The notes below the pieces were generated by a model, which ran no database searches, had not been told where the DNA came from, and was given only the letters and a program-made list of their open reading frames with translations. A stretch of 64,000 bases of DNA from Botryllus schlosseri (taxonomy: Eukaryota): contig CM119371.1 in assembly GCA_051294905.1 (NCBI GenBank), positions 5,024,001-5,088,000 on the forward strand. The letters are read 5' to 3'. Positions 23,826-63,918 of this stretch are shown in pieces (position 1 is the stretch's first letter; every line of letters begins with the position of its first letter). The translations under genes were made by a program, and so were the position numbers.

Positions 23826-23833
23826 GTCTAAAC

Positions 23834-29245: not shown

Positions 29246-29435
29246 ATTGATTTGGATTTGATTTCACAATTATGTCTGAAAAAGTACGAAAGAGATCTCT
29301 GAATTAATTGTGTGATGACTCTACTGGGAACCATACAAGCGAGGTCCATTTCTTGGCAAAGGCGAATTTGCCAAATGTATTAAACTTACTGAAATCTGAA
29401 GAAAACAAGCTTTCGCTTGTTAAAATGTGCCAAAA
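29246..29435 (+). pseudogene. PLK1: Polo-like kinase 1 pseudo-exon (first kinase exon), copy 2
   Basis: KEISELIV..DSTG..YKRGPFLGKGEFAKCIKLTEI*RKQAFAC*NVPK. AG acceptor at 29244-45, candidate ATG at 29272, donor mutated. Confidence 0.88.
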
Positions 29436-29938
29436 TTGAGTCGTCTTATTGGCACTATAGAATATGTGTGAATGCTAATGTATTTTTCACCTGTACTAAT
29501 ATAATTTTGTAAATACTCTTGTGAAAACAAATGTGGGAAAGACCTTGAAATTTGCCATTTCTACATGCTTTTTATAACTAGAGCTAGCCCGACTTCGGAT
29601 TTTTGAGCCAATACCGATGAAATTGATACCTCAATATTCTTCTAGATTAGGCCATATTTTAAAAAATGTAACAGCTTCACAGTCATTTTTATGCCTGGAC
29701 ATGGAATAAACTAGAAAGTCTGCATATGGACACTTGTAAGATATAAGGAGGCTATCAATATTTCCTGTGTAGCAGTCGCGGGGTGTCTGTGACCACGTTG
29801 CGCCCGCGCAGAAATTATCGATATTTTTTGCCTCTCATAGCCGATGCCGATATGTTTTGTGATATCTATGCGGTGTTATTGGCAAACCTATCATGGGCAG
29901 GGCAATAAATGCAAGCATTAATCTGGCGTTCATTTCAG

Positions 29939-30070
29939 GCACTTCTAGGGAATAAGCCTCGTAAAGAAAAAATGTGTCAAGAGACCAGTCTCCATAGCAG
30001 GTTGAGCAACAAACAAGTCGTTCGATTTGATGGATTTGTGAAAGAAAAGAATATTTTCTATATGTACTTA
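29939..30070 (+). pseudogene. PLK1: PLK1 pseudo-exon (alphaC/hinge exon), copy a, 3'-degraded
   Basis: tttcag|ALLGNKPRKEKMCQETSLHSRLSNKQVVRFDGFVKEK versus PLK1 [36 protein letters not shown]. Confidence 0.8.
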
Positions 30071-31050
30071 ATCAAGCAATTGTACCTGATTTCATAAATA
30101 ATTTCGAGAATTACCTCGCAGGCCACACCTAACCTTCTCGTGTGCCAAATTTAGCCTGCGTGCCATGGGCTGGCCGCACCTTATCTGTATGTTTATTAAT
30201 AACAGTGATTGGTGGTACATAAAAATTATATTGAAAATTTTTTAAAAGCAAATGTTTTCATGATAGAGAAGTCGGAGTCGAAGTCAGGGTCAATCTCACA
30301 AACTCCGAGTCCAAGTCCAGTCATTATTTTCCCTCCGACTCCGGCTATTATAGTTTTCACGACTCCGACTCCATCAAGCGAAAATTACACAGACTCCGAC
30401 TCCACAGCCCTGATTCGGACACTTATAAGATATAAAAATATATTAATATTTCCAGTGTAGCAGTCGCATATGATAGTTCTCTGACTCATTACTACCATGC
30501 TGTGACATCATGGATATTGCCGATATATTTTCCCTCGTGGCTGATACCGATATTTCTCTTCAAGTCTTATATCAGTACCCAGTAGGCGACTGATTATATT
30601 TGTCGCATGCATCAATGCCATTTTTTGATAATATTGTAAATTGCCATTCTTGAATGCTTATTATAGCTAGAGTATGACTAATATGGGATTTTAAGCCAAT
30701 GCCGATAGAACCGTTACCCATAGCACCTTCGCCCATAACTTCGATATTCTACTAGCTTGGGGACATTTCAAAAATATAGCGGCTTCACAGTCATTTCTAT
30801 GCTAGGACATGAAATAAACTAGAAAGGATGCATCCGGACACTTATAAAATACAAAAACATATTAATATTCCCAGTGTAACAGTCGCATATGATAATTCTC
30901 TGACTCCTTACTACCATGCTGTGACATCATTGCCGATATCTTTTCCCTCGTGGCTGATACTGATATTTCGCAGTACCCAGTACGATATTTTCGGCGCACT
31001 TATAATGGGTCGCGCTTTGATTACAAGCATTAATGTCGTGTGAATTTCAG

Positions 31051-31199
31051 GTACTACTCGTGAATGAGCATCATAAAAGCAAAATATGTCTAGAGGTCCT
31101 TCTCCATAGCATTGTGAATCACACGCACGTCGTAGGATTTCACGGATTTTTCGTATACAAAGATTTTGTCTACATCGTTCTCGAATTTGCAAAAGACGG
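31051..31199 (+). pseudogene. PLK1: PLK1 pseudo-exon (alphaC/hinge exon), copy b
   Basis: tttcag|[45 protein letters not shown](-1 nt)CKRR|gtaaa. 149 nt, one base short of in-frame. Confidence 0.88.
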
Positions 31200-31862
31200 G
31201 TAAAAGGTTTTCCTTGTTATTTTTACAAATTTAGTGTGTATTACACTGTTGGTCATAATTCCATCAGTTCTCTCGGTTCATTAGTGACGGATCTGGTCAA
31301 CTAGAAATTTCTAGAAGTCACATTAGATATGGCAATCGCAAAATGCCGGTAATCTAATTCCAATCTAATTTGTCAAATGTTTCTCCCATTGTAATTTTAA
31401 TCTAATTTCTGTTTTTTTTCTGAAAATGCTACAGGAGAACTGTTTAGTGCATAACCATAGTGTCCTATATGGCTATATGGTGTCGACACAGGAAAATCTC
31501 ACGCCTCAGTGAAATTGTATCACGTCACAATTTCCATTTGGCTACAGGCAATTTGACAGTCATTTTTGAACGGCTTGCCGAGCAGCAAATTTGGTAAAAC
31601 GGGTATCAATCGAAAGCTGACTCTGCACTGAGTACGAAACTATTAATTTTATTCCGCTCGTGGCCCTGGAACTCCCGCAAACAGCCTTGAATTTTTCATT
31701 GTTATGGAGATTGACATTGGGAGGCAACAATGCTGTCTGGTGAAACGAGAGAGTAGCTCAAGAGAAAAAGAGAATAATTAGAAATAGAATTAGTCAGAGA
31801 AAGACGTAGTTAGTTGCTCGCCACCGAACTAGATTGGTGATTTGTACGAGTCTCGATTTCAG

Positions 31863-32002
31863 GAAATGATCGTCAGAAATAGAAAATGTGTCGAGAGATG
31901 AGTCTCCATCGCAGTTCCAATCACGAGCATGTCGTTGGATTTCACGGATTTTTCCAAGACGAGGATTTTGTCGACATCGTTCGCGAGTTGTGCAAAAGAA
32001 GG
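31863..32002 (+). pseudogene. PLK1: PLK1 pseudo-exon (alphaC/hinge exon), copy c
   Basis: [42 protein letters not shown]|gtaaa versus PLK1 [41 protein letters not shown]. Confidence 0.92.
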
Positions 32003-33224
32003 GTAAAAGCATTTTCTTGATACAACTGTAATGTTTCTCAAAGTGTTGCGCAATTGCATCAGCTCTGTAATGTTCATTACTGGCGGACTTTGGACAACTA
32101 CATACTTCTTGTCTAATCAACCTAAATGGAGCCAAATATTGGTAATCTTGTGAGAGTCTGATTTGTCAATGCGTTTACGGCACGTCCGCAGTTAAATTTT
32201 AATGCAATGTCTGGTGTTCCTAAAATGCTACACGAGAACTGTATCGTACGAAACGAGCCAAGCTTCATGTGTAGACATTTGGTATTGGCGTGTATATAAG
32301 AATAATCCCAGATGTGATATGAACTGACACCGTATTTTTGTACAAATTCTTTGATGAAATGATTAATTATAATATAGTGGAAAGACTTGTGTAGGGTGTA
32401 GCTATCACTGTAATTCTAGTCCAATTTGAAAAAAAAAACGTGTTTAGCTATTATTGTAATTCTAATCTAGTTTCGAACAGCTGAAAATTCTCTAGTTGCA
32501 CAATTCCGACCACTAGGGGCTTGTCACAATGAATGTGGTATTCGAATCTGAATTGAGTAAATCATATTAATCGAGTCTGGTAGTGAAAACGATTTTTTAT
32601 AGTACTGAAATGATACCCTTTTTGCCACAAGAGGTGAAATGATTAAAAACAAACTGAGATTAACTGGGAGTGAATTTATCAATGAGAATTATAGTTTCGA
32701 TACTATTTTCAACTGTTGAAAGCTGTAAACCTCAATTTGCAGTATCACGGCATATGAAGTATGTAGTACAAAGTTATGCACGTTACTAGAAATGATATAT
32801 CTGTGACGTCGTGATCAATCACAGCATTGACAACATAGTGCAATGAAATAGGCGTGGTCGAAAATAGACAAATTGTCTTTAATAAGATGTAGGACTGGCA
32901 GTATATTGTTTGTAGCAGCGTGAACGGTAGTCCACATATTTGAATTTTCTCATCAACCATGCTGGTATGGCACCATAATAAGTAATACTCGAATACTCGA
33001 CTCGAAGCCTACTACTCGAGTCAATTTCAAATCAGTAAGGTTGTCAAATATCAAAAAGGCAGCATGAAATGAAGTTTTAATTTGGAACGTTCATCTGCGC
33101 AAAAAAATTGCTGTCGGATTTTACTGGCCCGCTAGCTCAAAAAGGGTGGGAACTGCTGATTTAGATGTTGCAGCAAATGCTTTTAGTTTTTTCATCCTGT
33201 CAATCCTTTAATATATATTGCCAG

Positions 33225-33350
33225 TCGCTGATGGGAGTTTACAAAAGATGGCGCCCCATCACAGAACCAGAGACTCTTTCTTTCATGTAGCAGATTGTGC
33301 TTGGAGCCGTTTATCTTCATCACTGTAAGATCAGTCACAGAGATATTATG
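33225..33350 (+). pseudogene. PLK1: PLK1 pseudo-exon (alphaD/alphaE to HRD exon), copy a
   Basis: cag|SLMGVYKRWRPITEPETLSFM*QIVLGAVYLHHCKISHRDIM|gta, 126 nt. Compare [42 protein letters not shown]. Confidence 0.9.
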
Positions 33351-34061
33351 GTAATATTGCTTGCATTTGACTAGGTCAGAGGTCATCAGTAGCGAAGTAC
33401 TTTTACATTGTCATGGTCAGACTTGGACAACTAAATATTCATAGCGGAGTTATCTAATAAAACTAATTGGAGCGAATGTCTGAAATCTAATTCTATTATA
33501 ATTTGATAAGAGTTTCTATACTCTCAATTCTAATCTAATTTCTGGTTTTCCTGAAATTGCTACAGGAGAACTATGTAGCGCGAAAGGAGACAAACTTACT
33601 GTACAAACATTTGTCATCCTCGTGCCCATGAGAATGAATTCTGATTTGATATGAACTGAACTTGATTCCATGTCGCAAGGTTTCACGAAATCAGTTGTTA
33701 TAAAAACTGTGTAGCTTGTATTTTAATTCTAATCTAATATGGAAAAGTAGCTATCATTCTAATGCTGATCTGATTTGGAAATAACTGTGTAGATATCATC
33801 ATAATTATGTTCGAATATGGAAATTAACTCTGTAACTGTAATGCTGATTCTAGACTGATTTAAAAAAGCTGAAAATTTTATAGTTGTATAAGTCTGCGAA
33901 TCTGCTTATCCTGATACTTGAATCTTTTTCTATCCAAATACAATTCCTGATTGGTATTCTAGTTTGAATTCACAAATCCCGATAGACAAACAATGTTATG
34001 AAAATGTTAGTTACTATCTGTGATTTTTTTCATATCTGTGATCTTCTCATTAGAATGTTAG

Positions 34062-34206
34062 AAAACGGCTCCTGTAAAGGAAGTGCGGGCGATCAAGTAT
34101 TTCAACGGCTCCATTCCTCAGAAACTGCCCATAACCTGATTGCCAATGGCGCCTAGAATTTCGGAAAGCCAACTACAGCAAAGGCGTCTTCTCCTGAGTT
34201 TCAACA
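34062..34206 (+). pseudogene. PLK1: PLK1 pseudo-exon fragment (kinase C-terminal extension / interdomain linker)
   Basis: VKEVRAIKYFNGSIPQKLPIT*LPMAPRISESQLQQRRLLLSFN|gtgagt versus PLK1 [24 protein letters not shown]...RKPLTVLN. TGA at 34137-39 replaces the Cys codon. Confidence 0.75.
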
Positions 34207-34786
34207 GTGAGTTTTTTCGTAAGTCTTGACAAAATCGAGTTCCTGATTTATTAGATTCTGAATGGAGTATTATGTTACGAGTCGCGTGCTCGAGTCTCAT
34301 CATAACTAGAGCCCGACACGACAGATATCTTATTTTTGAGCCAATACCAATATGTAGCACCTTCACCGATAACCTCGATATAATCGACTTCTATTGAAAT
34401 AATATGGAAACTAGCTTAAGACATATTTCCAGGCCTTCATAGTATTTATTTGAACCACTGTGCGGGCGTTGCTATACTTGGACATGAAATAAACTAGAAA
34501 GAATGCATCTGAACGCGTGTAAGCAGAGTCAGTCAGTAGCAATAGTACCTTTACTTTTACAGAGTACTCGATAAGGTTTTGCCTCGCGGCTTCACCATTA
34601 TTAGTAGTGACGACTCGGAGACGGCTGCAAGAACATCACACAACGGAAAACCGATATCATGATTCATGACAAACAAAGACACATGTTTTCTTGTTGATCG
34701 CCAACTAAAATATTTTTACATACACAACTAGAACTAGAATTACTCACTTTTTAAGATCCGCAACTAAATCTAGTATCTAATTTCAG

Positions 34787-34935
34787 GCATTGCTTGTGAA
34801 CAAGCATGAGGAAGACAAATATGTCAAAAGATCGGTCTCCATCGAATTTTGAATCACAAGTACATCGTTGGATTTCACGGATTGTTCCAAGACAAGCATT
34901 TTGTCGACGTCGTTCTTGAGTAGTGCAGAAGAAGG
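34787..34935 (+). pseudogene. PLK1: PLK1 pseudo-exon (alphaC/hinge exon), copy d
   Basis: tttcag|[47 protein letters not shown]|gtaaa, with a frameshift and a stop. Confidence 0.9.
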
Positions 34936-37049
34936 GTAAAAGTATTTCCTCATTATAGACTTGATGTACCTCTAACTGCGACGATCAAAAATGCATTAGA
35001 TCTGTCATGCTCATTACCAGCAGACTTGGATAACCAGATCACTATTTTTCTATAATGTATTGGGCTAAATATGGCAAAGTACTTGTCATGTAATTCCAAT
35101 CTAATTAGTCAACTAATTCTTTATATATAGTGTGAAACAAGTCAAGATTGGTGAACTATTCTCATGCTTATGATAATCAAGTCCGAATTGACATGAACTG
35201 AACTTGATTTCTTTTCCCAACTAGGTAAATAAATTCTAATCTACTTTTAATAATGTGATCATTTCCTAGTGACACAACTATGATGACTTGTGCTAGGCAC
35301 AGTGATTCGATGATTCAAATCTGAATCGAGTATCAATTCTGATCATTTGAGTCGAGTAGTCGGAAATGATTGTTTCGAGTGCTGAAAATATACGCTCCAT
35401 GCCTCAAAATTGAAAAATTATACTTACTATGAGCTGAATTGAACCACTGGGAATTATATTTCTCACTGTGAAAATCTGTGAACATTGATTGGTCGTATCG
35501 CAGTATACGAAACATGTAGTACAAAGCTATGCACGTTGCTGAAACGCACATGTAGCTGTGAAGTCGTGACATGTAGGCTAAGATAGATGATTTTGGCCTG
35601 AATACCAAATCAACTTCATGAGGCCCACACAACTATATTGCCCCTTAAAATCTCGGCAACAAGGGACGCAGTTTTGAAGCAAACAACTAGTAGTTGGGTT
35701 GTGTTTTGTGCGTGTAATGCAACATTGAACTGGGACTTCATAAAAGTAGGTTACATATGTCTTGAAGATAGCGTTTTGCAAAATCGAGTACCTGAGTGAT
35801 TTGGTTATTACTCGAGACGAATATCCGAGTATCTCTCATGACGTCATAACATTATGAATGATTATGTAATGTCCAAATATTCACATTTTATATGATCGCC
35901 ATGCAGGGTTTGTAACCAAGTCACAAGGTCCCGAGTCGCAAGGAAATCTCACTTTTGTAGTTTTGACTTGAGTCCAGTTGAGTCATTTTTAATTCACCAA
36001 CCAGTCAAGTGCAAGTGAATGAGTAGATGGGCGAGTCCAAGCCCAAGTGTTGTGGCTGGAGTCCGAGTCCAAGTCATCATGTTAACTGTTGAGTGTTGAG
36101 CTCAAACTGATTCAAACCAATTTTCAACTCTGCTCGAATGATATAGAATTGCACACATTCATAACACCGTATTCCCCCTCAGACCTAACAGTTTCTGACA
36201 GACCAATTACCAATCTTGTGGTGATTTTAATATTCTTTGAAGTTATAATGAGCTGTCTGTCTTGGCCATCCTAGTCATATGTCTTGGTTTGAGTCATGCA
36301 CAATGACTCGAGTACAAGTCGTGTCAATACATAAGTTGACTCGAGTCGTGTCACTAGAAAATTAGGACTCGTTTTGAGTGATGAATCTAGCCATCACAGC
36401 CCTGCCACTGTGAATATAATGTCGGTACTACATCTCATTATAAAGATAATTTAGTCATTTTCGACCATACCTATTTCACTGTACTTTGTGACAATGCTGT
36501 GGCTTGATCACAATGTAGGCAATACCGCATATCGAGTTTTACAGCCTTCCACAGTGGAAATGCCATTGAAACTATAATTCTCATTGATAAATTATGGTAA
36601 CTGTTAGGGACAACAAGTGTATATTTTCAGTAAATATACGGATATAGCGACACGATATCAACACTAAAATACCATGATTTTTTCAGCATTTTGTCTATTC
36701 ACCCATCTCAACGACCTTCCGTGAAGCCAGTTGTCTCCAGCTACTTTGTGAAAGCCTACATACCTCAAAAACTACCGACCATCTGCTTGCCTATCACAAA
36801 TGTCAACGCGAGACAATCTTAACCGGTGAGATTTTTACGCATCAAGTTAACAATTAGATCTTGACCAAAACCAACCAACGCGAAAAACAATTTATTTTAT
36901 CGTTTATAAATTTTCACATGTTCATGGGAAGCATTGGTTTCATGGGGATCACTTCTCGATGTGTGGAGAATAACGAAGAAGTGCCCCCTTTTTAGCTCGC
37001 TACTGGACTACGAGCGGTGGCACTGCCACACATGCTGTGCATTACGCTT

Positions 37050-37314
37050 GAAACACAGGGTAACGTATCACGATTTCATTGCAGTACTTCACATCAAGAA
37101 TTACTTCGCATATGATGGGTGGGCTGCTGTGATGAAGGCATTCCAAAGTAAATGTAGTCAGAAGGACTGGTACTGTGGAGTATGTCACCTTCAACTTACA
37201 GAGAGCAATTCAATTCGTTGTGACTCCTGTCTCTACCGGGATCATCTCCTATGTGCTGGACTAAACACTTCCCCGAAACAAAACAAATGGTCCTGTGGCC
37301 GCTGCAAAAAATAA
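37050..37314 (+). pseudogene. PHD-finger (C4HC3) coding remnant, probably the C-terminus of a decayed DNA-transposon protein
   Basis: WYCGVCHLQLTESNSIRCDSCLYRDHLLCAGLNTSPKQNKWSCGRCKK* has all 8 PHD ligands, and there is no intact upstream ORF. A transposon origin (for example MULE/SWIM-type) is inference. Confidence 0.75.
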
Positions 37315-37752
37315 TAGATGCCTCTGTTAGAAAAATAGGTAGCGGCAACTTTGAAATTGAAAGTACTTTATTGTTAGTTTTCATGATTGATGTTCCCAGT
37401 GAGAACACGCTATCAATGCTCAAATATCTTGGAAGCAGCAAATTGTATGCACAGCATTTACTGTCACTTGCAATATGGAACGTACGGAAATGCCAGCATG
37501 CATACCAGATTAACACCCAATGATCATATATACATTGAAAGTTATACACAAATATTTTTCGAACAGTTTGTCGTATGTGTTCGATGACTTTTTCATACCT
37601 GCTTGTGCTTAAGTTGTTCACTCCCTTAATACAAGACCCTCGTCGAAGGGAAATATCTACTTGGGCCCATTTAATAGCTACCTAACCAAGAGATCTATCA
37701 ACTGACCTATCATTTTGAATGGGTTACCATCTGTGAATTGCTGTATGGCAAA

Positions 37753-37875
37753 TACCTCATTACCTCTTGTCGCCATAATAACACTCTTGCCATACCTGAT
37801 TACCTCTGATAGTCCTATTAACACTCTTGACCTACCTGATTGCCTCTGATAGTCGTATTAACACTGTTGCCCTAC
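37753..37875. repeat. Minisatellite, 3 x ~39 bp
   Basis: Unit tacctgattacctctgatagtcctattaacactcttgcc. Confidence 0.8.
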
Positions 37876-51188: not shown

Positions 51189-51989
51189 ATATTAACCCTA
51201 ATTATCAATTCCGTCAGATCATGACGTCATTCCTTTGTGACGTCATCGAACTCGCATACCTAAGGAAAATTAGCGTTCGGCGCCTATGTCGCCAGAGGGT
51301 AATGCCACTCAGATTTTGGTAGTGGTCATAAACGTTGAAGAACTAGTGGTCTCCAAAAGATTGTCAAAGACATTCCTCTGTAGGCTAGTGCTATCGGAGC
51401 TGGTGTTTACTGCGACCAATGCCATGGCGCCTACTCCGAACCAGATATCCGTCCCTAATCGCCTGGCCTAACCGGGCTTACAGTGTATCACTTGTTCCAG
51501 AATTGTTTTGAATCTTTTATTCAGTCATACCGGTGAATTGTTGAAGGCATAGTAGATTAACAGTTTCGTGTCTTGTAGCTGAAATCTATCGAACGATCAA
51601 GTTGAAACCTGAACGTCCCAAATGTTCAATTGCAGCCAATATCTGAAAGGGAATCGGGAATGAAATTGTGATCTACAAAATATGTGCGAAAACATGTATG
51701 AGGAACTACTCGTCTGACTTGTGAGATTGCAGATCATCACAATGCCCAATAATACCACTAAACTGGTAATATTAGATGATCAATTTGATATTCTTGGATA
51801 TTGTTATTTATCACACTGCTCTGTTTTTGCTAATTCTTTCTGTATTTCAGATTGGGTTGCTATAATATAAGAATTATAATACTGTGTAATAGCTCATTTC
51901 ATGCTGTCATTGAATACTCGTTTTCAAGCAGAGAGCGGTTGATGTGTCATGCTTGAAGAAGTAAAGTAATATACAGATAATCCAGAAGA

Positions 51990-53180
51990 ATGACAAGGAT
52001 GATGTGCTGGATCTGTGGAAAGAGCTTCCATCGTAAGAATGGATATAAAGCTCACTTTCTATTCCACCTTATAGATAGAAATACCGAATGTGAGATCTGC
52101 GGAAAAATCTTTGCTGCAATCACTTTATTGAAAAAACATTTGATATCCCACAACTTTTCGAAAAATCATGAACGCAAGGGCATTGGCAAAGAGTATAATC
52201 CGATCGATCACTTGAAAAGACATGCGGATAAACGTACTGCTCACCTTGGAGTCAGAAGCCACGACTGTGAGATCTGTGGAAAGTCGTTTGTGCGGGTTGA
52301 CGCCCTGAAAACGCATGGAAATATACATACTGGAGTCAAAAACTATGAGTGTCGGATCTGCGGAAAAGCGTTTTTTCGGCTCAGTAACTTGAAAACACAT
52401 GAGAATATACATACTGGAGTCAAAAACTATGAGTGTCATATCTGCGGAAAAGTGTTTACCCAGCTTGTTGACTTAAAACGACATGAAAATACGCATACTG
52501 GGGTCAAAAACTATGAGTGTGAGATCTGCGGAAAAGTGTTTATTCTTCTCAGTAACTTGAAAACCCATGAGAATATACATACTGGAGTCAAAAACTATGC
52601 ATGTCAGATTTGCGGAAAAGCGTTTAACCAGCTTGGTGAATTGAAAACACATGGAATTACACATACCGCGGTAAAAAACTATGCATGTCAGCTATGTGGA
52701 AAAGTTTTTGCCAGGCTTGGTGATATAAAAAGACATGGAAATACACATACTGGAGTCAAAAACTATGCATGTCAGATTTGCGGAAAAGCGTTTACCCTGC
52801 CTGGTAACTTGAAAAGACATGGAAATACACATACTGGAGTCCAAAACTATGAGTGTCAGATCTGTAGTAAAGCGTTTAGTCAGCTCAGTAACTTGAAAAC
52901 CCATGTGCATACACATTCCGGAGTCAAAAACTATGCATGTCAGGTCTGCGGAAAAGCGTTTACCCGACTTGTTAACTTGAAAGAGCATGGAAATACACAT
53001 ACTGGAGTCCGAAACTATGAGTGTCAGATCTGTGGTAAAGCGTTTAGTCAGCTCAGTAACTTGAAAACCCACGTGAATACACATTCCGGAGTCAAAAATT
53101 ATGCATGTCAGACGTGCGGAAAAGCGTTTAACCGGCTTGGTAGCTTGAAAAGACATAGAAATACACATGCAGTAGAGTAG
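51990..53180 (+). CDS. Tandem C2H2 zinc-finger protein C (family 1), 396 aa, 13 canonical fingers
   Basis: Intact ORF with the same N-terminus as A and B (MTRxMCxICGKSFHRK). It keeps the terminal finger and stop (HRNTHAVE*) that is out of frame in A and B. Same upstream acceptor, ending at 51850. Confidence 0.92.
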   Translation: MTRMMCWICGKSFHRKNGYKAHFLFHLIDRNTECEICGKIFAAITLLKKHLISHNFSKNHERKGIGKEYNPIDHLKRHADKRTAHLGVRSHDCEICGKSFVRVDALKTHGNIHTGVKNYECRICGKAFFRLSNLKTHENIHTGVKNYECHICGKVFTQLVDLKRHENTHTGVKNYECEICGKVFILLSNLKTHENIHTGVKNYACQICGKAFNQLGELKTHGITHTAVKNYACQLCGKVFARLGDIKRHGNTHTGVKNYACQICGKAFTLPGNLKRHGNTHTGVQNYECQICSKAFSQLSNLKTHVHTHSGVKNYACQVCGKAFTRLVNLKEHGNTHTGVRNYECQICGKAFSQLSNLKTHVNTHSGVKNYACQTCGKAFNRLGSLKRHRNTHAVE

Positions 53181-54414: not shown

Positions 54415-55271
54415 TAGGGCGATTTTTTTCGACCTGTCGAAATTTGTCAAAATTGTTCACAAAGTCGAAAAATTTTTGACGTATGCAGTTCGTTTGTATC
54501 ATAGATTTTGCACTGTTGGTGAACTTATCATTTGATATTTTACAACTTGTAGCCTACTTTATAGGCCTTCCGTTGTAAACGGCCAATTGTTTGCTCATTG
54601 TGAATTATTAACGGTCAAATAAAACAAATAGGTAAACATGGTGTTATGATCAAGGTACCGCAATATCCTAACTGAAGAAAGACTTCTTGGGCATTGCATC
54701 ATTCTTATATTAAGGAGCGCATCATTCTTATATTAAGGAGCACATGATGAAAAATTGTTATGTAGACTACATTTTCAGAATGAAGCAACACGGTGTGTCA
54801 CCAACAGTGTACGCAGCCAACAACTGCTGCTGTTGAACGTTCTTTCTCCATTCTTAGCAAGCGTCTTAGTAAGGAAATGCACTTTCTACCCAAAGATGTA
54901 GGAAAGTATCTCTCGTTTTATTTTAGTTGTATACTACAAATTTTAATTATTTCTACCATAATACGTATTGTAACCACTGGAATTTTTCATAGGGCCAGAC
55001 TTCGTTAAAATATTAGTTTTGTCATGTCAAAATTTGCCTGTTTCCAAGCCAAAAACGTTTTTTTCATGCCAAACTACTTCGTTAGGACAGCCAGTTCAAA
55101 CTAGAAATGAAAATAAGTGGTACAGTTTTAACATTACATGGAAATACACCTAGTTTGCATACGCTAGGTCAAAATTTGGTCACAATTCAGTTTTGTTAGG
55201 TCGAAAAAAGTCAAAATTTTTATTTTTTGGGTCAACATTTTCTTTTTTCAGGTCAAAGAAAAATCGCCCTA
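54415..55271 (+). mobile_element. Internally deleted hAT transposon with dimerisation-domain remnant
   Basis: TIR TAGGGCGATTTTT / AAAAATCGCCCTA. The internal peptide TQPTTAAVERSFSILSK (ORF 54793-55008) matches the hAT C-terminal dimerisation motif. Absent at the paralogous sites ~14290 and ~22870. Confidence 0.85.
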
Positions 55272-56972
55272 ATCATTAGGCATATCAATTGAACTACCCA
55301 AAGCTACCGATATTACAGACACTGCTGGCGAGAGATTGATTATAGCTGCGGGCTGTACGGAAAATCACTTTTGGTCTGTGGTTTCACCTCTGTGCCACCA
55401 GACCAGATATTTATGGTTTAATTCGTGACGGTTGCTTCTCCAAGAACTCAGCAGCTGTAGAGCAAAACTAATGTCACTCCCTAGCCAACGTGATTGGGTA
55501 AGGAATAATATTACGCATAAAACTTGTAATGAATAATTGTACTGGCAACAGAGCACTAATCTTCTGTGGCAATCCGACACTATGGGGGCACATATTGGCT
55601 CAAAATCGTCATTCCCTGTTACTTTGATCCTATGCAAATTGCGAGCTACATAGAATGCCCTTTCGGAAGAAGTGTACAGAGCACTATGAAACATTGCGCC
55701 ATAGTAGAACTGTGATAGTTTTTGGCTGTCTGTCAATTGCATCACCTTAACCAGTGGCTCTCAACTGCAAATTTCCAGGCCTGTGCCAGTCTGCTTTAAC
55801 TTTTCAGTCGGCGGAACAAATATATATTTGATGTATTCGTAATCGCAAAATGTAAGAGGTGGGAGTCTTGTTCATAAATTATAGAACAAGAACACAGCCT
55901 TCATTTTTATCCGTCATCGCAGTGCTGCAATCGATGCAGCGATCTGTTTGAAAGTACCCAGAAACACGTTTATTAAGAAAAAAACATCACTTCATGTTCA
56001 GGCGTGCTTGGAACGAGATGTTTGATTATGGCTTAGGGTCAAAATTGGCTCCGTACATACTATTGCTTAAAAAAATGGCCAAAATGTCGATTTCAGATTG
56101 CATAGCTTTTGCTGGTCGGAATCGACCAAAATTTGGTATGTAACGTTGTTAGGCGACCTGACAATGTCATCACTCTGCGAGTGAAGTGTAAAAAACGTTA
56201 CAGCCATTCTGTAACAGCAGTTACGAGGGGATTGTTCAACCACCAATGTCTCATTGTTATTGAACGAATAAAATCCAGTAGATGAGATTTTGAGTCAGTC
56301 GGCAGTTTTGTCAACTTGTAAAGATCATACAGACAGCTTGTTATTTCTAGAAACAACGTGTTTTCGAACTTGATCCTTTATATCTAAAAATAGCCCTTCT
56401 ATGCCTTGCGAAATTGTGTTTTGTGCAGGGTTGTAATGACTCGAGTCACGATTTTGTGACGACTCGACTTGACCCAGTCATGTTTTCAAAATACGGAAAT
56501 GATTCGACTCGACATTGAGTCAATTTGTGCATTGACTCGAGTCATTGCGCATGACTCGAACCAAGTCATTAAACTCGACGCCAAAGACCGACATTTCATT
56601 GTTATTCAGAACAATAGTAAAGTAACCACACTATATTAGGATTACGTTTATTGGTCCTGGTACTTGAAAATGCGACCAGACACTGCTAAAGGTTGAGGAA
56701 ATAAGGATATTGTACGTGTAATATTGTTTAAAGGGCAGAATGATTTTGTTGTTTCTGTCTATTTTTTTAAACATGCTATATAATACCACATTTGAATACA
56801 ATGTAAATACAAATATCATGCAACTAGAGCTACAACTCGATCGATACTCACAACAAGAACTAGAACTACTCACTTTATGAAATGTGCAACTACAACTACA
56901 ACTACTCAAAATAACAGTAATCAGTCGACCATCAACTAATTCTATTAAAATTTGTACATGTCCAAATTTCAG

Positions 56973-57110
56973 GCACTTCTTAAGAATGAGCAATGAGCAT
57001 GTTAAATACAAAATGTGTCAAGAGATCATTCTCCATTGCAGTTTGAATCACAAGCACGTTTGATTTAAAGGATTTTTGTCGACATCGTTCTCGAGTTGTG
57101 CAAAAGACGG
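56973..57110 (+). pseudogene. PLK1: PLK1 pseudo-exon (alphaC/hinge exon), copy e
   Basis: tttcag|ALLKNE..KYKMCQEIILHCSLNHKHV*FKGF..VDIVLELCKRR, with an internal deletion and the donor lost. Confidence 0.85.
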
Positions 57111-57980
57111 ACAAGCGTATTTCCTCATTACAACTGTAATGTATATCTAACTGTAGTGATCGCAATTACATCAGATTTGTAACGTTCATTAGCGAGCCCA
57201 CTTGGACAACTAGATAATCCCAGTTGCCTAATTAAGACTTATTATAGCCAAATTCCGGTAATCTAATAATATTCTAATTTGAGAAATACTGTCATTTTAA
57301 TTCTAATATAATTTATGGGTTAACTGAAAATGCTGCAGGAGAACTGTATAGTGCGAAAAGAGTCGATTTTGGTGTACAGAGACTTATCATTCTCTTGCTA
57401 TGAAAATGAACTGTTATTTGGTATGAAGTGATTTGGTTTTTATTGCATTTGTTTTACGAATTAAATGATTCTAATCTAATTTCGATAACTTGTGTAGCTA
57501 TAACTTTAATTGTAATCAAGTTTAAAAAATTTCTCGTTACCCAACTCTGATCACTAGATCGCGACCGATATCGTATTTTTAAGCCAAAACCGATAAGTAG
57601 CACCCTGGCCGTTAACCACAATCGGCCGATATTGAAATGAAATGGCAAGTAGCTTAACACATATTTCCAAACCTTCAGAGTATTTAGTTGGCCAACGTTA
57701 CATTTGAACAACTGTAAGCATGGTCAGTCAGTAGCAATAACACTTCTACTTTTACAGAGTACTCGTAAGGTTTTGCCCCGCGGTTTCACCATTATTAGTA
57801 GTGATCACTCTGAGACATCTGCAAGAACATCACACAATGGGAAACCGGTATCATGATTTACGACAAAGGAAGACACATGTTTTGTAGTTGATCGGCAACT
57901 AAAATATTTTTACATGCACAATCAGAACTACGGTACTCACTTTTTAAAATCTACAACTAAATCCAGTACCTGAATTTCAG

Positions 57981-58129
57981 GCATTGCTTGTGAAGTAGCA
58001 TGAGAAAGACAAATGTGTGAAGAGATCAGTCTCCATCAAAGTTTGAATCACAAGCACGTCATTGGAGTTCAGGGATTCTTCCAAGACTGGGATTTTGTCT
58101 ACGTCGTTCTTGAGTTGTGCAAAAGAATG
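57981..58129 (+). pseudogene. PLK1: PLK1 pseudo-exon (alphaC/hinge exon), copy f
   Basis: tttcag|[48 protein letters not shown]|gtaaa. Flanks 57720-58790 are collinear with 34520-35560. Confidence 0.9.
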
Positions 58130-59179
58130 GTAAAAGCATTTTGTCGTTACAATGTAGTATACTTCTAGCTGTGCCAATCGAAAATGCATTAGATCTGTCA
58201 TGTTCATTACTAGCAGTCTTATGCAACCATAAAATTATTGTTCTATACCGTACTATATTAGGCTAAATAGGGCGAAGTACTTGTAATGTAATTCTAATCT
58301 AATTAGTCAACTAATTCTACACATATAGTGTGAAACGAGTCAGATTGGTCAACTGTTCTCATGCTTATGATAATTAAGTCCGATTTGAAATGAAAGGAAA
58401 TTGATTTCTTTTCCCAACTACGTATTTGTAATTCAAATCAAATTTGGAAAAATGTGGTTATTATAATTCAAATTCTAATCTAGTTTGGATAATAATGTGA
58501 TATTTTTCTAGTTGCACCATTGCGATTTCTAGGGCTGAGCATAATGATTTGATGACTCAAATCTGAATTGAGTATCAATTCTGATAATTTGAGTCGAGTA
58601 GTAGTAAATTATTGTTTCGAGTACCGATAATATACACTCCATGCCGCGAAAGGGAAAAATTATATTAACAATAAGCTCAACTGAACCGGTGGAAATTATA
58701 CTTTCGATAATATTTCTCACTGTGAAAAGCTGTAAACCTTGATTGGTCGTACAGCAGCAGACAAAACATATAGTACAAAGCTACTCGCGTACATTGGAAT
58801 GGCATTTCCGAGTAGTCGTGATGGAATAGGTATGGTCATAAAAGTGCCACATAATCTTTATAATGTGACTAGAATCTGCATTATATTCTTTGTGGTGTTG
58901 CTGTGACGTTTACACGAGTGACTCAAACTCATTACTTGATCAAAATCAGATCAGTCGCACACTCTGTTTTGGCCAGCACTATTTATTACATGTTCGATTT
59001 CAAAAAACAAGTATTAAATGAAGTTTCTAGTTGGGAAGGTTCACCGGGGTGCAAAAACTGTCGTCAAGTTTCACTGTCCCTCAAACACAGAGAGGTTGAG
59101 AAACACTGATTTAGTGGCATCCAACAAATAATATTTTTTTCATTCCAGCAATCCAATTACCTTATACTTTTGTTGTCAG

Positions 59180-59305
59180 TCGCTGATGGAAGTTTACAAA
59201 AGAAGATGCGCCATCACAGAACCAGAGACCCGTTATCACTCACAACGGATTCTGTTTCGTGTAGTTTGTCGTCACAATTGCAAAATCATTTACAGAGATG
59301 TCAAG
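59180..59305 (+). pseudogene. PLK1: PLK1 exon copy (alphaD/alphaE to HRD exon), copy b, reading frame still open
   Basis: cag|SLMEVYKRRCAITEPETRYHSQRILFRVVCRHNCKIIYRDVK|gtaac, 126 nt with no stop. HRD has become YRD. Confidence 0.88.
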
Positions 59306-60425
59306 GTAACATTGTATGCTGTCGTGCATTCGTAAATAATCTTCGAAAATTATGTCAGAACCAGAGCCGACCGATTATTGATTTGTCAATTTGGTGATAA
59401 AACTATGCACATCATGTACCAGTAATGTAAAATGGTTGATGACGCTACAAGCTCTTGAAAGAGAATTTGGACCAATTACAGGATTTTCTACCAGAATCAC
59501 TTTTCACTTTTCTTTATACTCAACTTGAACCTACGACCATAGAAAATCCCCTATTAACTTACTAATAATACATAACTCACTAATGATTGTTTGGTTGCTA
59601 AATTACAAATGAGCTGAGAAAATTGGAGATAGAACTGGCATCTCAAATTGACGGGGTTTCGAGCTTAAAACGGGGATGGTATCGACCAACCCTGCCTATA
59701 CCACTTTTTGGCTGGATGACTCAGAGGTAGGGCTGCAATGATTCGAGTCATGACTCGACTCAAACTCAATTCACACTTATTTGGTGACTCGACCTAACTC
59801 GAGTCGTATGACTCAAGACCAGGACTATCACTGAAACTTCGAAGAATAGTAAAGTCACCACATGATTGGTATTTTGTATATCAGTCCTGATACTGGGAAA
59901 AAGGGCCAGAAACTGTCAAACTGAGGAAAGTAACGATATCATGAATGCGTGCCATTCTATATCCCCCCGAAGATAATTGGAAAAAGTATATTGTACTGAT
60001 AACTGAACAGTGAACATAATGACTCAGTTTTCTGCTAGCTAACTTGGACTCGGACTTGACTCGATGGTGAATTGAAAATGACTCGACTTGATTCGAATCA
60101 AAACTATAAAAGTGAGATTGACTTGTGACTTGGTTACAACCCTGCTCTGAGCTAGTAAAGGCTGCAAAAATATCGTGCAACAGAACACCGGTATCACGGC
60201 GACATACATTTTCTAGTTGTCGGCAACTACATTTTTTTGAATGAACCACTCACTATTCGAGATCTGCAACTACAACTGAAACAAATTGCTTTTAATTTTT
60301 TGCTATGCAACTAAAACCTGAATTCCTCAAAATGGCAGTAGTTTGTTGACCATCAACTACCTGGATTGGTAGTTTGTACAAATCAGTGTACCTGAGTAAT
60401 TTGAATATGAAAGTTGTATCGACAG

Positions 60426-60613
60426 CTTGGAATCTTTTCCTGAACAATATGGAGATGAAGATCGAAGATCTCGGAGAGATGTCAACCTGGCTACCAAAGT
60501 CGACTTTGACACAAAAATACTTTTTGCGGCACACCCAACTATATTGCCCCGGAAGTTATTGGAAAGAATGGGCACAGTTTCGATGTGGAGACCTGGTCGC
60601 TGGGCTGTGTTCT
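60426..60613 (+). pseudogene. PLK1: PLK1 pseudo-exon (DFG / activation loop / APE exon), copy a
   Basis: cag|[25 protein letters not shown]...[29 protein letters not shown]|gtgagt across frameshifts. Compare [62 protein letters not shown]. Confidence 0.92.
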
Positions 60614-62540
60614 GTGAGTATATAAGAACATCCATGTGAAACTTTATTAAACGGGAATTGCGGAGGTCTTAGGGGTAGGACTGGGAGAATTCGAGCAACT
60701 GAGTGATTTGATTCTGAATCCAGTGTTAGCCTTAGAGTCCAGTATCTGAGTATCAATCGATATGACATCAGTATGAATGATGTGGATAGTGCAGATCTGC
60801 AATTCTGCATCACATTGAAGATGATTTCGTATATTTTCGACCACGCCAATTATATCGCACTTTGTGACTTCACAGACGCTGCCCACCAAATTTGCCTCAA
60901 TTCCAAACAGCCGAACCGCAGCAGAGCCAATTGAATTTTTTAATTTTATTAAAAAAGGTTAAATTTTACTGTTAATCCAATGAAATTGCTAAGTTGTCTA
61001 AAAGAGTGATGCATAGCAATTTTCGCTCCCTTCTAACCAGCCCTAGTGGACAGTGCTGCCAAATCTATAATTTCTGTCGAGTAGCAAGGAAGGTATCATT
61101 TCGGTGCTCGAAAAATCATCTCTCATTACTCGACTGGAATCATTGTGCCCAGCCTTAGCTATTGCATATCGCAGAGGCTTCTGACGTTTTTATCAGCGAG
61201 GCTTGGCAAAATCTAGCATCTTGGTGATTTGGTTGCGTGTTAAGTATCCTGCCATGAAACCTACCAATCCATATTTTGACCTATTTTGCTTTTGCTATGA
61301 AAATGAATTTTTCCAGCCCTCGCCCCTCGTCACAATTGCAGTGCCATTATTTCAAAGCTTTAAGATCTTATTTCTTTACTTGACAGGTGCTACTAATACA
61401 GAGACACAGAAGCACATATGTGACAAACAAGAAGCGACCATCATTTGCAGTAATCAATCATTGGACTCAAGAAATTGATGCATACCGGCCAATCCGACTT
61501 TGAAGTTTGCTATAAATATGGGTTGGTATTTATGTAATCAGTAGCCTAATTGATTTCATTTTCAATCGACTTCCTTCTTACATGTAGGCCTACTTGTACG
61601 GATCAGAGATTTTATAGCATTCATGACTTTCACAACTGAAGAATATCATAAATTCTCTGTGCAAATCCAGTTTGTCAAATGACATTGACGCAAATCTGAC
61701 CGATATCTTGAAATCCATGCTAATCTCAAATTCATGTCAAGTTATAGAGATATCATAGATCCAAATTACGGCTGTTGCTCGCATGTGACGTTGTCGAGAA
61801 GATTGTTGACGCTTGGGCTGTGCACAATGAATCGGGTGTGTGCTTGAATCTGAATCGCGCATTATTTTTCTTGATTCCAGTCGAATAGTGAGAGACGATC
61901 CGTTCCGTCACTGAAACCTCGCGCTCCTTATCATTTAGAGTTGATTGATCAATAAAATGATTGCTTCCATACTCATGTCCAATGTACAAAGATGTAAACC
62001 TCGAGTGGTCATAAACGCAACATACTTAACATGAGGTACAAACATGCACGCATATTACTGGAACTGACATATCTGTGAAGTCGTGATCCATCTACAGCAT
62101 TGTCACAAAGTGCAATGAAATAGGTGTGGTCAGAGGGATAACAAATCATCCTTAATGTGATGTAGGACTGGCATTATATTGGTTGTAGTCGCGGAAAAGT
62201 TATTTAAGTTATTTAAACTTTCCACTTCATCCACACTGGTATGGCATCATAATAAGCCATACCGTATTCGAAGACTTGACTCGAAGCCTGATACTCAATT
62301 CAATTCCAAATCACCTAGGTACTTGATTTTTGGAAGCCCTACGTATAACAAGTCGAATATCAAAATGGGGCCATGAATTAAAATTTTTAATTAGAAAGGT
62401 TTATCGGTTCAGAAAATTGGTTGTCGAATTTTACAGGCCCGTCGACTCAAAAAGGTTGAGAACCAATGATTTAGATTCCCAACAAATAATTTTGTTGTTT
62501 TCATCCTGTCAATCCGATTACCTTTAATATGTGTTTTCAG

Positions 62541-62663
62541 TTGTGATGGAAGTTTACAAAACAGATGTGCCATCACAGAAGCAGAGACTCGTTATTAAAT
62601 GCGACTGATTCTGATTAACGTCGTTATCTTCACGATTGTAAGATCATTTACAGAGGTATCAAG
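62541..62663 (+). pseudogene. PLK1: PLK1 pseudo-exon (HRD exon), copy c
   Basis: Nucleotide paralog of 33225-33350 and 59180-59305 (atggaagtttacaaaa..gccatcacagaagcagagactcgttat..tgtaagatcatttacagag), with several indels. Upstream intron ~62050-62540 resembles ~32750-33225. Confidence 0.82.
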
Positions 62664-63222
62664 ATAATAATTGTAGTGTAGGGATCTAATGAAACTAAAT
62701 AGAGCTAGGCTGTAATCTAATTCTGTCCTGATTTGTCGAATTTATGAAATGCTCTCAATATTCTAATTTCTGCTTTTCCTGAAGTTGCTACAGGAGAACT
62801 GTATCTTGTGAAACCAACGAAGCACGGTGTTACAGACACGTGCGGTCTAAAAATGCCGAATAATCTGTATTGTGATTCCACTGTTTTTGGTTGCATGAAA
62901 GGACCTTATTTGAACTTTATACATCATTGATGCTTTTATCATGACATAATGAGTTTTACTGACATAGTCATCTTGATTCGAAGCCTAATACTCACTTCAG
63001 TTTCAAATCAGTCAGGTATTCGATTTTGCACAGCCCTACGTATAACAAGTCAAATATCAAAGTACCAGCGTGATATGAAGTTTCTAACTTGAAAGGATCA
63101 ACGATCTGCAAAATGTGATGTTGAATTTTTACCTGCACCCAAGCTCATTTTTATATTGACCCAACAAATAATGCTACTGATGTCATTCTATCAATCCGAT
63201 TAGCTTTGAATTTCGTTGACAG

Positions 63223-63347
63223 TGGCCGATGGATCTTGAGAAAGAAGACGAGTCATCGCAGAAGCAGAGACTCGATCTTACTTGCAACAGATTCTGGTTG
63301 GAGTCGTTTATATTCACGGCTGTGCGATCATTCACACGGATATCCAG
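63223..63347 (+). pseudogene. PLK1: PLK1 pseudo-exon (HRD exon), copy d
   Basis: RRRVIAEAETRSYLQQILVGVVYIHGCAIIHTDIQ|gtgac, 125 nt (frameshifted). Confidence 0.85.
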
Positions 63348-63732
63348 GTGACATTGTTTGCAGTGGCTCCAGAGAGTGCAAACTGCTGGATTTTTAATAT
63401 GTTCAACTAGAACTAGAACTACTCAGTTTTCAGAACTAAAACTAGAACCAACGACCGTTACAAATCCGCAACTAACTAACTAAAATATAGCTAAGATGAG
63501 TAATAATTGATAATTTAACTTCTGAATTACATATGAGTTCAGAAACATTGGAGATAAAATCGGCATTTTAAACAAACGGGAAGTGTTTGCTTTTAAAATG
63601 TTAAAATATAAGACTAAAACTAGAACTAATCAAAACGGCAGCAGTTTCCGTAGTTGGCCATCATTTAACTGGAATGCTAGTATGCACAACTTTATATACT
63701 TTTGTAAGTCGATGTGAAGTTTGTATTGGCAG

Positions 63733-63918
63733 CTGGAGAAGATCTTCCCGAACAATATGGAGGTGAAGTTTGAAGATTTCTGTTGAGCTGCCACGGTCGA
63801 CTGTGACAGGTACACAATGAATACTCATTGCGGCTGTCCCGACTATTAATGACCCGGAAGTTCTCGGCAAGAATGCACATAGCTTCAAAGTGGACACCTT
63901 GTTGCTGGGTTCTGTTTC
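63733..63918 (+). pseudogene. PLK1: PLK1 pseudo-exon (activation loop exon), copy b
   Basis: cag|LEKIFPNNMEVKFEDFC*AATVDCDRYTMNTHCGCPDY..PEVLGKNAHSFKVDTLLLGSV|gtgagt. Confidence 0.85.

Follow-up and report, generated by a model that had tools for sequence, protein, structure and literature searches.

The window analysed here, a 64,000-nucleotide stretch of Botryllus schlosseri DNA (positions 5,024,001 to 5,088,000 of contig CM119371.1, referred to below as C1), contains 18 broken copies of exons of the Polo-like kinase gene PLK1 together with genes encoding C2H2 zinc-finger proteins. PLK1 is an essential mitotic kinase that is normally maintained at low copy number. Searches with tblastn, in which an ascidian PLK1 protein (P0002, 572 aa) and the exon peptides of the PLK1 gene of the same genome served as queries, recovered in place all 15 of the copies that the first-pass annotation had counted (as at least 15), and added three that it had overlooked: exon 4 at 35562-35708, exon 6 at 36688-36795 and exon 7 at 61410-61520. 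As had also been claimed, the copies share one orientation, with 17 of 17 window HSPs at E<=1e-3 falling on the + strand, compared with 0 HSPs in each of 20 composition-preserving shuffles of the sequence. The PLK1 pseudo-exons are the following.

5176..5411, + strand: exon 1 (Gly-loop), solitary, truncated, one stop (tblastn)
29283..29435, + strand: exon 1 (Gly loop), four stops; opens the scrambled block 1-2-2-2-3-6-2-4-6 (tblastn)
29936..30070, + strand: exon 2 (hinge), first of a tandem trio, 49% amino acid identity, donor lost (TC), truncated, lesion-free in the matched part
31048..31194, + strand: exon 2, second of the trio, 63% amino acid identity, AG and GT retained, lesion-free in the matched part
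31874..32002, + strand: exon 2, third of the trio, one stop
33222..33353, + strand: exon 3 (HRD), one stop (tblastn)
34029..34208, + strand: exon 6 (end of the kinase domain and linker), two stops, outside gene order (tblastn, blastn)
34813..34935, + strand: exon 2, one stop; opens a second mosaic piece, 2-4-6 (tblastn)
35562..35708, + strand: exon 4 (activation loop), five stops and an 8-codon gap (tblastn)
36688..36795, + strand: exon 6, partial, lesion-free in the matched part (tblastn)
56995..57113, + strand: exon 2, frameshift and stop, donor lost; opens the block 2-2-3-4-7
58010..58126, + strand: exon 2, stop in its first part (tblastn)
59177..59308, + strand: exon 3, 44 codons open, HRD motif changed to YRD (tblastn)
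60431..60617, + strand: exon 4, frameshifted, with stops (tblastn)
61410..61520, + strand: exon 7, 47% amino acid identity, stop and gaps (tblastn; blastn match at 61384-61533)
62557..62666, + strand: exon 3, frameshift and stop (tblastn)
63240..63350, + strand: exon 3, HRD motif changed to HTD; first exon of a colinear copy running past the window edge
63730..63916, + strand: exon 4, frameshift and stop; same copy as the preceding exon 3

The boundaries of these pieces coincide with those of exons 1, 2, 3, 4, 6 and 7 of the parental 11-exon PLK1 gene. Their assignment to PLK1 rather than to another kinase family is borne out by positions 59180-59308, which best match PLK1 (12 of the 14 matched PDB sequences, E ~1e-6), with PLK2 and PLK3 at 0.004 and 0.007 respectively. 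The reported bounding of the copies by AG and GT is likewise evident among the nine window copies of exons 2 and 3, where AG is present in 9/9 and GT in 7/9. Decay by stops and frameshifts, also noted earlier, affects approximately 14 of the 18 pieces, while approximately 4/18 (31048, 36688, 59177 and the truncated 29936) are lesion-free within the part that was matched. No partial gene copy in the window is intact, and its multi-exon blocks are all incomplete. Nowhere in the window is there a complete, colinear and uninterrupted PLK1 frame that covers the kinase domain and both polo boxes; only two genes outside the window, designated A and B, have one. The first-pass annotation recognised no polo-box exon, which is correct inside the window but not beyond its right edge, since the colinear copy that begins at 63240 runs on with exons 5, 6, 7, 9 and 11 at C1:5,088,463-5,094,699, among them a polo-box 1 interrupted by stops and the final exon.

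Two candidate identities for the window sequences were considered and rejected. A functional PLK1 gene within the window is incompatible with the scrambled exon order, the stops or frameshifts in most pieces and the lack of a polo-box exon. A processed pseudogene (retrocopy) is incompatible with exons that lie 0.7-1.3 kb apart and are separated by intron-like DNA with homology from copy to copy.

What the window contains is part of a much larger array, the amplification being about 5-fold larger than the window suggests. Approximately 12% of a 2.5 Mb domain of C1 (4.04-6.51 Mb) was read as sequence and the remainder was surveyed through exon-level search tables. The counts in these represent lower bounds: at least ~70-90 copies each of exons 2, 3, 4 and 6, only ~20-30 for exon 1 and for every polo-box exon (the latter thus about 3-fold rarer than the middle exons), and in all about a hundred dead partial PLK1 copies. 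Among the matches listed, 72 of 74 for exon 3 (97%, at 4.08-6.51 Mb) and 89 of 93 for exon 2 (96%, at 4.04-6.51 Mb) lie within this single domain, which represents 0.5% of the genome. The exon 2 and exon 3 matches outside it are mostly on small unplaced contigs; a few copies occur on C17, C13 and C5, and polo-box copies on C8, C12, C16 and C15. Across the domain the copies form blocks of alternating strand. As single exons, 54 of the 74 listed exon 3 matches are free of stops, and HTD in place of HRD is common to several copies.

The duplicated intron flanks described in the first-pass annotation are readily found (e.g. 34319-35529 and 57562-58783, 76% over 1274 nt). Intron flanks are common to copies at 67-79% identity, which indicates copying at the DNA level, and homology between copies extends up to 8.4 kb at 95.6%. 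Even the solitary exon 1 copy at 5176..5411 is preceded by a flank of ~1.4 kb that is homologous to 28339-29470. With shared introns, stops and frameshifts, and divergence between copies ranging from 1% to ~33%, the proposal of DNA-level duplication in many rounds followed by decay stands. Because the divergences are spread out, the burst that was also proposed is better described as a long series of segmental duplications. One such event is recent:

23481..34575, no strand assigned: recent segmental duplication unit comprising a zinc-finger gene and the scrambled PLK1 block; inverted copy of ~C1:4.7768-4.7894 Mb at 95.6-99%

The left edge of this unit lies inside a high-copy repeat (depth 3000-4000 in the DNA-like run X7), and its inverted duplicate is situated ~270 kb away. 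The duplicate, at 4.77-4.78 Mb, repeats the order 1-2-2-2-3-6-2-4, and the peptide of the exon 2 copy at 31874..32002 is identical to that at C1:4779381-4779509 on the - strand. In a tree the three tandem exon 2 copies belong to three deeply separated clades, all of which also include copies from other places in the domain. The scrambling must therefore be old, as both the conserved order in the inverted duplicate and the depth of these clades imply.

The zinc-finger genes of the window include the following.

9911..11851, + strand: C2H2 zinc-finger gene, member of the co-amplified subfamily, frame interrupted by one stop (10277-10279)
19352..20827, + strand: C2H2 zinc-finger gene, 491-aa open frame
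26107..27339, + strand: C2H2 zinc-finger gene, 410-aa open frame, inside the recent duplication unit 23481..34575
51981..53180, + strand: C2H2 zinc-finger gene, 399-aa open frame

The 18 closest relatives of the window zinc-finger N-terminus (>=83% identity) are all located on C1 at 4.09-6.50 Mb and have no stops inside the match, and a comparison of the search tables by hand places the kinase-exon copy nearest to each of these 18 genes on the strand of the gene itself. The zinc-finger subfamily and the PLK1 copies thus share the 4.0-6.5 Mb range, and one 11-kb block holds both; the next-closest zinc-finger subfamily, at 21.9-22.15 Mb, is without PLK1 pieces. An unusual linker, HTGVKNY, characterises the zinc-finger genes, in which a KRAB domain was not seen. 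No transposon protein domain turned up among 85 ORFs of >=75 aa that the window contains besides its zinc-finger genes.

We consider it probable (roughly 0.8) that the window pieces are unprocessed PLK1 pseudogene fragments that multiplied as passengers when a C2H2 zinc-finger cluster underwent segmental duplication. Both the observation and the interpretation in the first-pass annotation hold; the phenomenon is of a kind already known, and the family is unusually large. A full-length PLK1 gene within the zinc-finger cluster was copied with its introns, and the copies were rearranged, with tandem triplication of exon 2 and displacement of exon 6. The scrambled unit and neighbouring zinc-finger genes were subsequently recopied repeatedly, in both orientations, within ~2.5 Mb of one chromosome. 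Throughout, the zinc-finger genes remained open, while the PLK1 pieces gained stops, frameshifts and substitutions without codon-position bias. The process may have been driven by recombination between non-allelic sites or by replication-based duplication, with the similar zinc-finger genes and interspersed repeats as substrates, and new zinc-finger copies may have been kept by selection, with the PLK1 pieces as neutral cargo. We infer that these pieces have no present-day function.

The two intact PLK1 genes, A and B, lie inside the domain and consist of 11 exons apiece. Their 567-aa proteins are identical, as all 44 differences among 1701 CDS positions are synonymous (0 amino acid changes). 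The tree path from the base of the PLK1 family to these parents has a dN/dS of 0.16, and the parental genes are constrained. The recent evolution of the pseudo-copies, by comparison, looks neutral. The first-pass annotation had proposed dN/dS as a test, and in an analysis of the best-scoring 47 of ~72 exon 3 and 50 of ~91 exon 2 copies, picked by exon similarity, the result came down on the side of neutral debris. Parsimony steps are distributed evenly over the three codon positions (0.069/0.058/0.070 for exon 2 and 0.075/0.075/0.086 for exon 3), as are the differences among 31 sister pairs (Sd 69, Nd 192; 100, 82 and 88 of 1386 by position), and pN/pS is 0.70 against 0.84 +/- 0.12 in neutral simulation, with 11% of 300 simulations at or below the observed value.

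Several signals of residual constraint are nevertheless present in this set. Mismatches between sister copies amount to 240/3892 (6.2%) in exons versus 276/3262 (8.5%) in the adjacent 60-nt intron flanks, and gap columns to 0.8% versus 2.4%. The splice dinucleotides are better retained than the average exon column (AG 50/50 and GT 41/50 for exon 2, AG 38/45 and GT 45/47 for exon 3), with 12 parsimony steps over 8 splice columns compared to 3.3-3.8 steps per exon column. Values of pN/pS are 0.62 among all pseudo-copy pairs and 0.28-0.35 against the parent. These signals may derive from ascertainment, the copies being the best-scoring ones, and/or from the constrained parental branch, and an early functional phase of the PLK1 copies may also have contributed.

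Weak conservation of this type could also be expected if the array were a source of regulatory small RNAs, with pseudo-exons transcribed in both orientations into antisense or hairpin products (endo-siRNA or piRNA) that would adjust the dosage of both PLK1 genes, a reading that we judge very unlikely. The strand-alternating blocks and the 95.6-99% inverted duplicate of the window block would suit it, and exons that are somewhat better kept than their flanks without a codon-position pattern are what constraint at the RNA level would give. However, nucleotide identity to the parental exons is only 74-87%, so that long perfect matches for small-RNA targeting would be few, and the difference between exons and flanks is explicable by ascertainment. 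It is similarly improbable that the array is not inert but forms an RNA-level system (antisense, hairpin, piRNA-like or decoy exons) setting germ-line PLK1 dosage, or the trace of a conflict over cell division comparable to that of Stellate and Suppressor of Stellate. Inverted blocks surround the two same-protein PLK1 genes and polo-box-only copies occur on other chromosomes, observations that would suit such a reading, as would exons and splice sites that are better preserved than nearby intron DNA but lack a protein-level signature. In a bulk RNA run (X23, of which ~6% was read) depth is <1 over the block, and the intact zinc-finger genes there are equally silent; this comparison has no power to separate silent from expressed pieces.

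Capture and multiplication of PLK1 exons by a non-autonomous DNA transposon or a Helitron-like element would account for the scrambled order, the partial gene content, the ~3-fold over-representation of the middle exons, the few copies on other contigs and chromosomes and the high-copy short repeats within introns. It is nonetheless a doubtful explanation at best, and in our estimation an improbable one, given the concentration of 72/74 exon 3 and 89/93 exon 2 listed matches in one 2.5 Mb stretch and the size of the duplicated blocks (>=11 kb), which include whole zinc-finger genes. The window ORFs yielded no transposase, reverse transcriptase or helicase domain, and in the copies compared the homology tapers off instead of stopping at common termini.

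It is very improbable that some copies in or near the window are living, fast-evolving PLK1-like paralogues that still encode a kinase (for example the non-RD HTD variant) among dead relatives, even though the stop-free exon 3 matches, the shared HTD motif, the retention of splice sites and the dN/dS of 0.28-0.35 against the parent could be read in this way. Among the blocks that were inspected, which comprise the window with its left and right flanks, the inverted duplicate and the partial copy following gene B, none showed a colinear open set of exons, every multi-exon block being scrambled or interrupted by stops or frameshifts. The best non-parental exon 4 copies have only 70-73% amino acid identity and scrambled surroundings (e.g. 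5.539-5.546 Mb), and the codon positions evolve equally. Finally, false copies generated by uncollapsed haplotypes or mis-joins in the assembly, as might be suspected from some identical or near-identical pairs (e.g. the exon 2 peptides at 4779381 and 5055886) and from PLK1 pieces on several small unplaced contigs, can be dismissed with near certainty, as most copies are 15-33% apart, far above allelic variation, and contigs from independent runs labelled as the same species (X7 and X8, from other years and studies) cover 30/30 and 29/30 bins of 19000-38000 at >=95%, including over pseudo-exons.

The passenger reading of the PLK1 fragments has precedents in the KRAB zinc-finger clusters of vertebrates and the core duplicon regions of primates, where passenger gene fragments form families of unprocessed pseudogenes. 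As in those systems, DNA-level copying included the introns, and the copies occur as mosaic blocks of many ages in both orientations, confined to one chromosomal domain, co-amplified with an intact tandem zinc-finger family and decaying as neutral passengers. The present case differs in that the passenger is an essential low-copy mitotic kinase with ~70-90 copies per middle exon, the zinc fingers have the HTGVKNY linker with KRAB unseen, and the host is an ascidian; we found no report of such an array from an ascidian in the literature searched. Drosophila Stellate and Suppressor of Stellate, amplified copies of the CK2 beta subunit gene that are transcribed and act via piRNAs in genetic conflict, resemble it in the amplification of a house-keeping kinase-pathway gene into large, diverged arrays in both orientations, but the copies described here are mostly partial and scrambled rather than simple tandem repeats and were identified in genomic DNA. 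Endo-siRNAs derived from pseudogenes in mouse oocytes likewise involve pseudogene copies that lie inverted or antisense to a functional parent; their function rests on sequenced small RNAs, whereas our evidence is genomic and the exons are 13-26% diverged from the parent. Pack-MULE, CACTA and Helitron transposons capture gene fragments and similarly produce partial, shuffled sets of host-gene exons in many copies, but the PLK1 copies are clustered rather than dispersed, their units include whole neighbouring genes, and no transposon proteins were found in the window ORFs, nor element termini in the copies compared.

The array provides a clean natural example of a tandemly expanding gene family that drags a neighbouring gene along, with selection sorting the cargo so that the zinc fingers stay open and PLK1 decays. 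It also serves as a warning for annotation, as automated gene prediction in the C1 domain will produce many spurious PLK1-like fragments. The series of copies, with divergences from 1% to ~33%, could serve to measure the spectra of neutral substitutions and indels in this genome. If the weak residual constraint is real, it would suggest a role at the RNA level, which would be much more interesting.

Translation of the sites at which the first-pass annotation had reported exons of Polo-like kinase 1 (PLK1) makes PLK1 motifs evident, for example a 51-residue stretch leading to IIYRDVK and another of 20 residues. All 15 claimed copies were recovered by tblastn using the 572-aa ascidian PLK1 protein P0002 and exon peptides of this genome's own PLK1 as queries, and three additional pieces bring the number in the window to 18. 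The window (G+C 35-42%, eukaryotic DNA) corresponds to C1:5,024,001-5,088,000, C1 being contig CM119371.1 of the 495.5-Mb, 219-contig assembly. Exons are numbered according to two intact 11-exon PLK1 genes elsewhere on C1 (genes A and B), exon 2 encoding the hinge, exon 3 the HRD motif, exon 4 the activation loop and exon 6 the post-kinase linker.

Additional PLK1 pieces (tblastn) and partial copies in the window
35562-35708, +, additional piece, exon 4
36688-36795, +, additional piece, exon 6
61410-61520, +, additional piece, exon 7
5.2 kb, partial copy 1, solitary exon 1
29.3-36.8 kb, partial copy 2, scrambled order 1-2-2-2-3-6-2-4-6
57.0-61.5 kb, partial copy 3, order 2-2-3-4-7
from 62.6 kb, partial copy 4, exon 3 followed by 3-4

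The fourth partial copy extends to the right of the window through exons 5, 6 and 7, a polo-box 1 exon containing stops and the last exon, ending at C1:5,094,699. All 17 PLK1 HSPs in the window with E<=1e-3 lie on the plus strand, as had been claimed, and none was obtained in any of 20 shuffles of the window. The assignment to PLK1 is borne out by the HRD-exon copy at 59180-59308, which matches PLK1 structures in the PDB with E about 1e-6, compared with 0.004 for PLK2 and 0.007 for PLK3. Most of the pieces contain stops or frameshifts, and the window copies are 67-79% identical to one another with homology that spans the introns (e.g. 76% over 1274 nt), in keeping with the decay and duplicated intron flanks described initially. 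When the polo-box exon of another C1 copy was used as the query, the top matches were ascidian PLK1 (P0002, 87%; Ciona savignyi and C. intestinalis, 83%; then Styela, Clavelina and Phallusia), from which the genome is probably that of an ascidian.

The two intact genes are as follows.

Intact PLK1 genes on C1
C1:5,790,869-5,807,146, -, gene A, 11 GT-AG exons, 567-aa ORF
C1:6,285,475-6,298,501, +, gene B, 11 GT-AG exons, 567-aa ORF

They are in inverted orientation, separated by about 480 kb, and their introns are 84-96% identical. The encoded proteins are identical, and the 44 differences among 1701 CDS positions are all synonymous; purifying selection plainly acts on both genes. Our exon searches found no exon-2 or exon-3 copies between them, and a single weak exon-1 match at 6.032 Mb. 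A third, partial copy immediately follows gene B (C1:6,302,411-6,308,502) and comprises pieces of exons 1, 3, 8, 10 and 11, the last with 95% protein identity.

An exon-by-exon search of the whole genome (E<=0.01, the two parental genes counted, all counts being lower bounds) gave 34-93 matches for each of exons 1, 2, 3, 6, 9 and 11, which supplies the assembly-wide copy count proposed in the first-pass annotation. The cluster was analysed from these exon-level tables together with 80 short stretches.

Matches to PLK1 exons in the whole assembly
Exon 1, at least 34
Exon 2, at least 93, of which 89 within C1 4.04-6.51 Mb
Exon 3, at least 74, of which 72 within C1 4.08-6.51 Mb
Exon 4, at least 148, about 77 (hand count) in that C1 stretch and the remainder other kinases
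Exon 6, at least 81
Exon 9 (polo-box 1), at least 36
Exon 11, at least 35

The middle kinase exons are thus about three times commoner than exon 1 and the polo-box exons, and the copies are grouped in blocks of alternating strand. Polo-box-only DNA copies, consisting of exons 8-11 with their introns, are found on other contigs (C8:20.707-20.712, C16:22.46, C12:20.42, C12:20.461, C16:22.489 and C15:0.165 Mb) and are 80-91% identical to gene B at the nucleotide level. Stops are absent from the copy on C8, whose dN/dS against the parent is 0.18; the copies on C12 and C16, arranged as two inverted pairs, are 98% identical to the C8 copy but carry three stop codons each.

The PLK1 blocks of the window alternate with four C2H2 zinc-finger ORFs, all on the plus strand and of 399-523 aa, one of them with an in-frame stop. 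This stop (10277-10279) interrupts a frame of about 645 codons at 9911-11851, whereas its sister gene (19352-20827) has an unbroken frame. Relatives were sought with the N-terminal 70 aa of a window protein, 150 of 3530 candidates being scored. Among those scored, the best 18 (at least 83% identity, no stops within the match) all lie at C1 4.09-6.50 Mb, the stretch that contains the PLK1 pieces, and each of the 18 shares its strand with the kinase-exon copy closest to it (tables read by hand). The next-closest subfamily among the scored candidates is at C1 21.9-22.15 Mb, where our exon searches found no PLK1 pieces. Window positions 23481-34575, which comprise a zinc-finger gene and the scrambled PLK1 block, are an inverted duplicate (95.6-99% identity) of about C1:4.777-4.789 Mb, in which the exon order 1-2-2-2-3-6-2-4 is retained; other blocks match the window at 80-85%. 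Since the duplicate carries both elements and the remaining blocks are more divergent, zinc-finger genes and PLK1 blocks travel together in duplication units that arose in many rounds and differ in age. Together with the lesions and the intron-spanning homology, this supports the earlier proposal of repeated DNA-level duplication of PLK1 followed by decay.

Other features of the window were noted. A short high-copy repeat at 23438-24705, with depth to 3000-4000 in DNA-like runs, coincides with the left boundary of the recent duplication block. Minus-strand ORFs of 130-245 aa recur downstream of each zinc-finger gene (14188-14844, 22768-23505 and 55365-55760); Pfam gave no match to them and the Atlas none that was usable, and they are probably non-coding repeat-unit sequence rather than genes. 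A 134-aa ORF at 36910-37311 (+) weakly matches a PHD finger, its E of 1e-4 falling short of the Pfam cut-off, and no transposon domains were detected in 85 other window ORFs of at least 75 aa.

For phylogenetic analysis we aligned the parents with 50 pseudo-copies of exon 2 and 47 of exon 3. These pseudo-copies were drawn from the window, its flanks, the inverted duplicate and the 40 best-scoring other matches per exon, and are a biased sample of about 91 copies of exon 2 and about 72 of exon 3. All sampled pseudo-copies belong to one group, separate from genes A and B. The tandem exon-2 trio of the window is divided among three deep clades, and each of these clades also includes copies from other parts of the domain; tandem triplication and scrambling therefore predate the spread.

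Estimates of dN/dS, as had been suggested at the outset, were obtained from sister pairs and by distance decomposition. In 31 sister pairs (Sd 69, Nd 192) pN/pS is about 0.69-0.70, against a neutral expectation of 0.84 +/- 0.12 simulated with the substitution spectrum of the flanks, and 11% of 300 runs fell at or below the observed 0.70. Differences at the three codon positions are even (100, 82 and 88 of 1386), as are parsimony steps per position (0.069/0.058/0.070 for exon 2; 0.075/0.075/0.086 for exon 3). Copies compared with the parent give lower dN/dS values (0.28 for all exons, 0.35 for exons 2-3), and the path from the base of the family to the parents gives 0.16 (dS 0.225, dN 0.035), a ratio that includes the constrained parental lineage. 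Judged from these substitution patterns, evolution of the family has been essentially neutral since its spread began.

Despite the flat codon profile, exons and splice dinucleotides of the exon-2/3 copies across C1:4.04-6.51 Mb are better retained than flanks. Sister copies differ at 6.2% of exon positions versus 8.5% of the 60-nt flanks, with three-fold fewer gap columns in exons; AG is retained in 50/50 and GT in 41/50 exon-2 copies, and AG in 38/45 and GT in 45/47 exon-3 copies. Because the sampled copies were picked by exon similarity, this excess is likely to reflect ascertainment. It may instead represent real weak constraint, and the copies may initially have been spliced genes or have had a role at the RNA level.

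Four sequencing runs were compared with window positions 19000-38000. From about 6% of the bulk RNA run X23, 554 reads could be placed, 98% of which continue into unlike sequence. Per-strand depth in this run is 0-0.76 across the PLK1 block and 0-0.39 across the intact zinc-finger genes; this shows no expression, but since depth is below 1 for both alike, the test is without power. No read joint linked two pseudo-exon limits among 15 of 36 joints. In the single-cell run X21, a 37-fold peak at 31680-32313 stems from a short high-copy repeat at 32222-32265, as hundreds of reads match those 43 nt only. Runs X7 and X8 resemble DNA runs, and no RNA dataset is listed for positions 28500-37500. The sole clearly transcribed part of the compared region is 37386-38000, where an RNA depth of 13-60 and a loose end in poly(T) just ahead of 37900 suggest a polyadenylated minus-strand transcript with its body to the right of 37.9 kb. 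An assembly artefact is countered by contigs of two other runs labelled as the same species, which cover 30/30 and 29/30 bins of this region at >=95% identity.

A full-text literature search found no report, for ascidians, of duplicated PLK genes or of arrays of PLK1 pseudogenes; the phenomenon itself is of a known kind. We consider it probable (roughly 0.8) that these sequences are unprocessed PLK1 pseudogene fragments which form a very large family, amplified as the passenger of a zinc-finger cluster that undergoes segmental duplication and in which both working PLK1 genes also reside.
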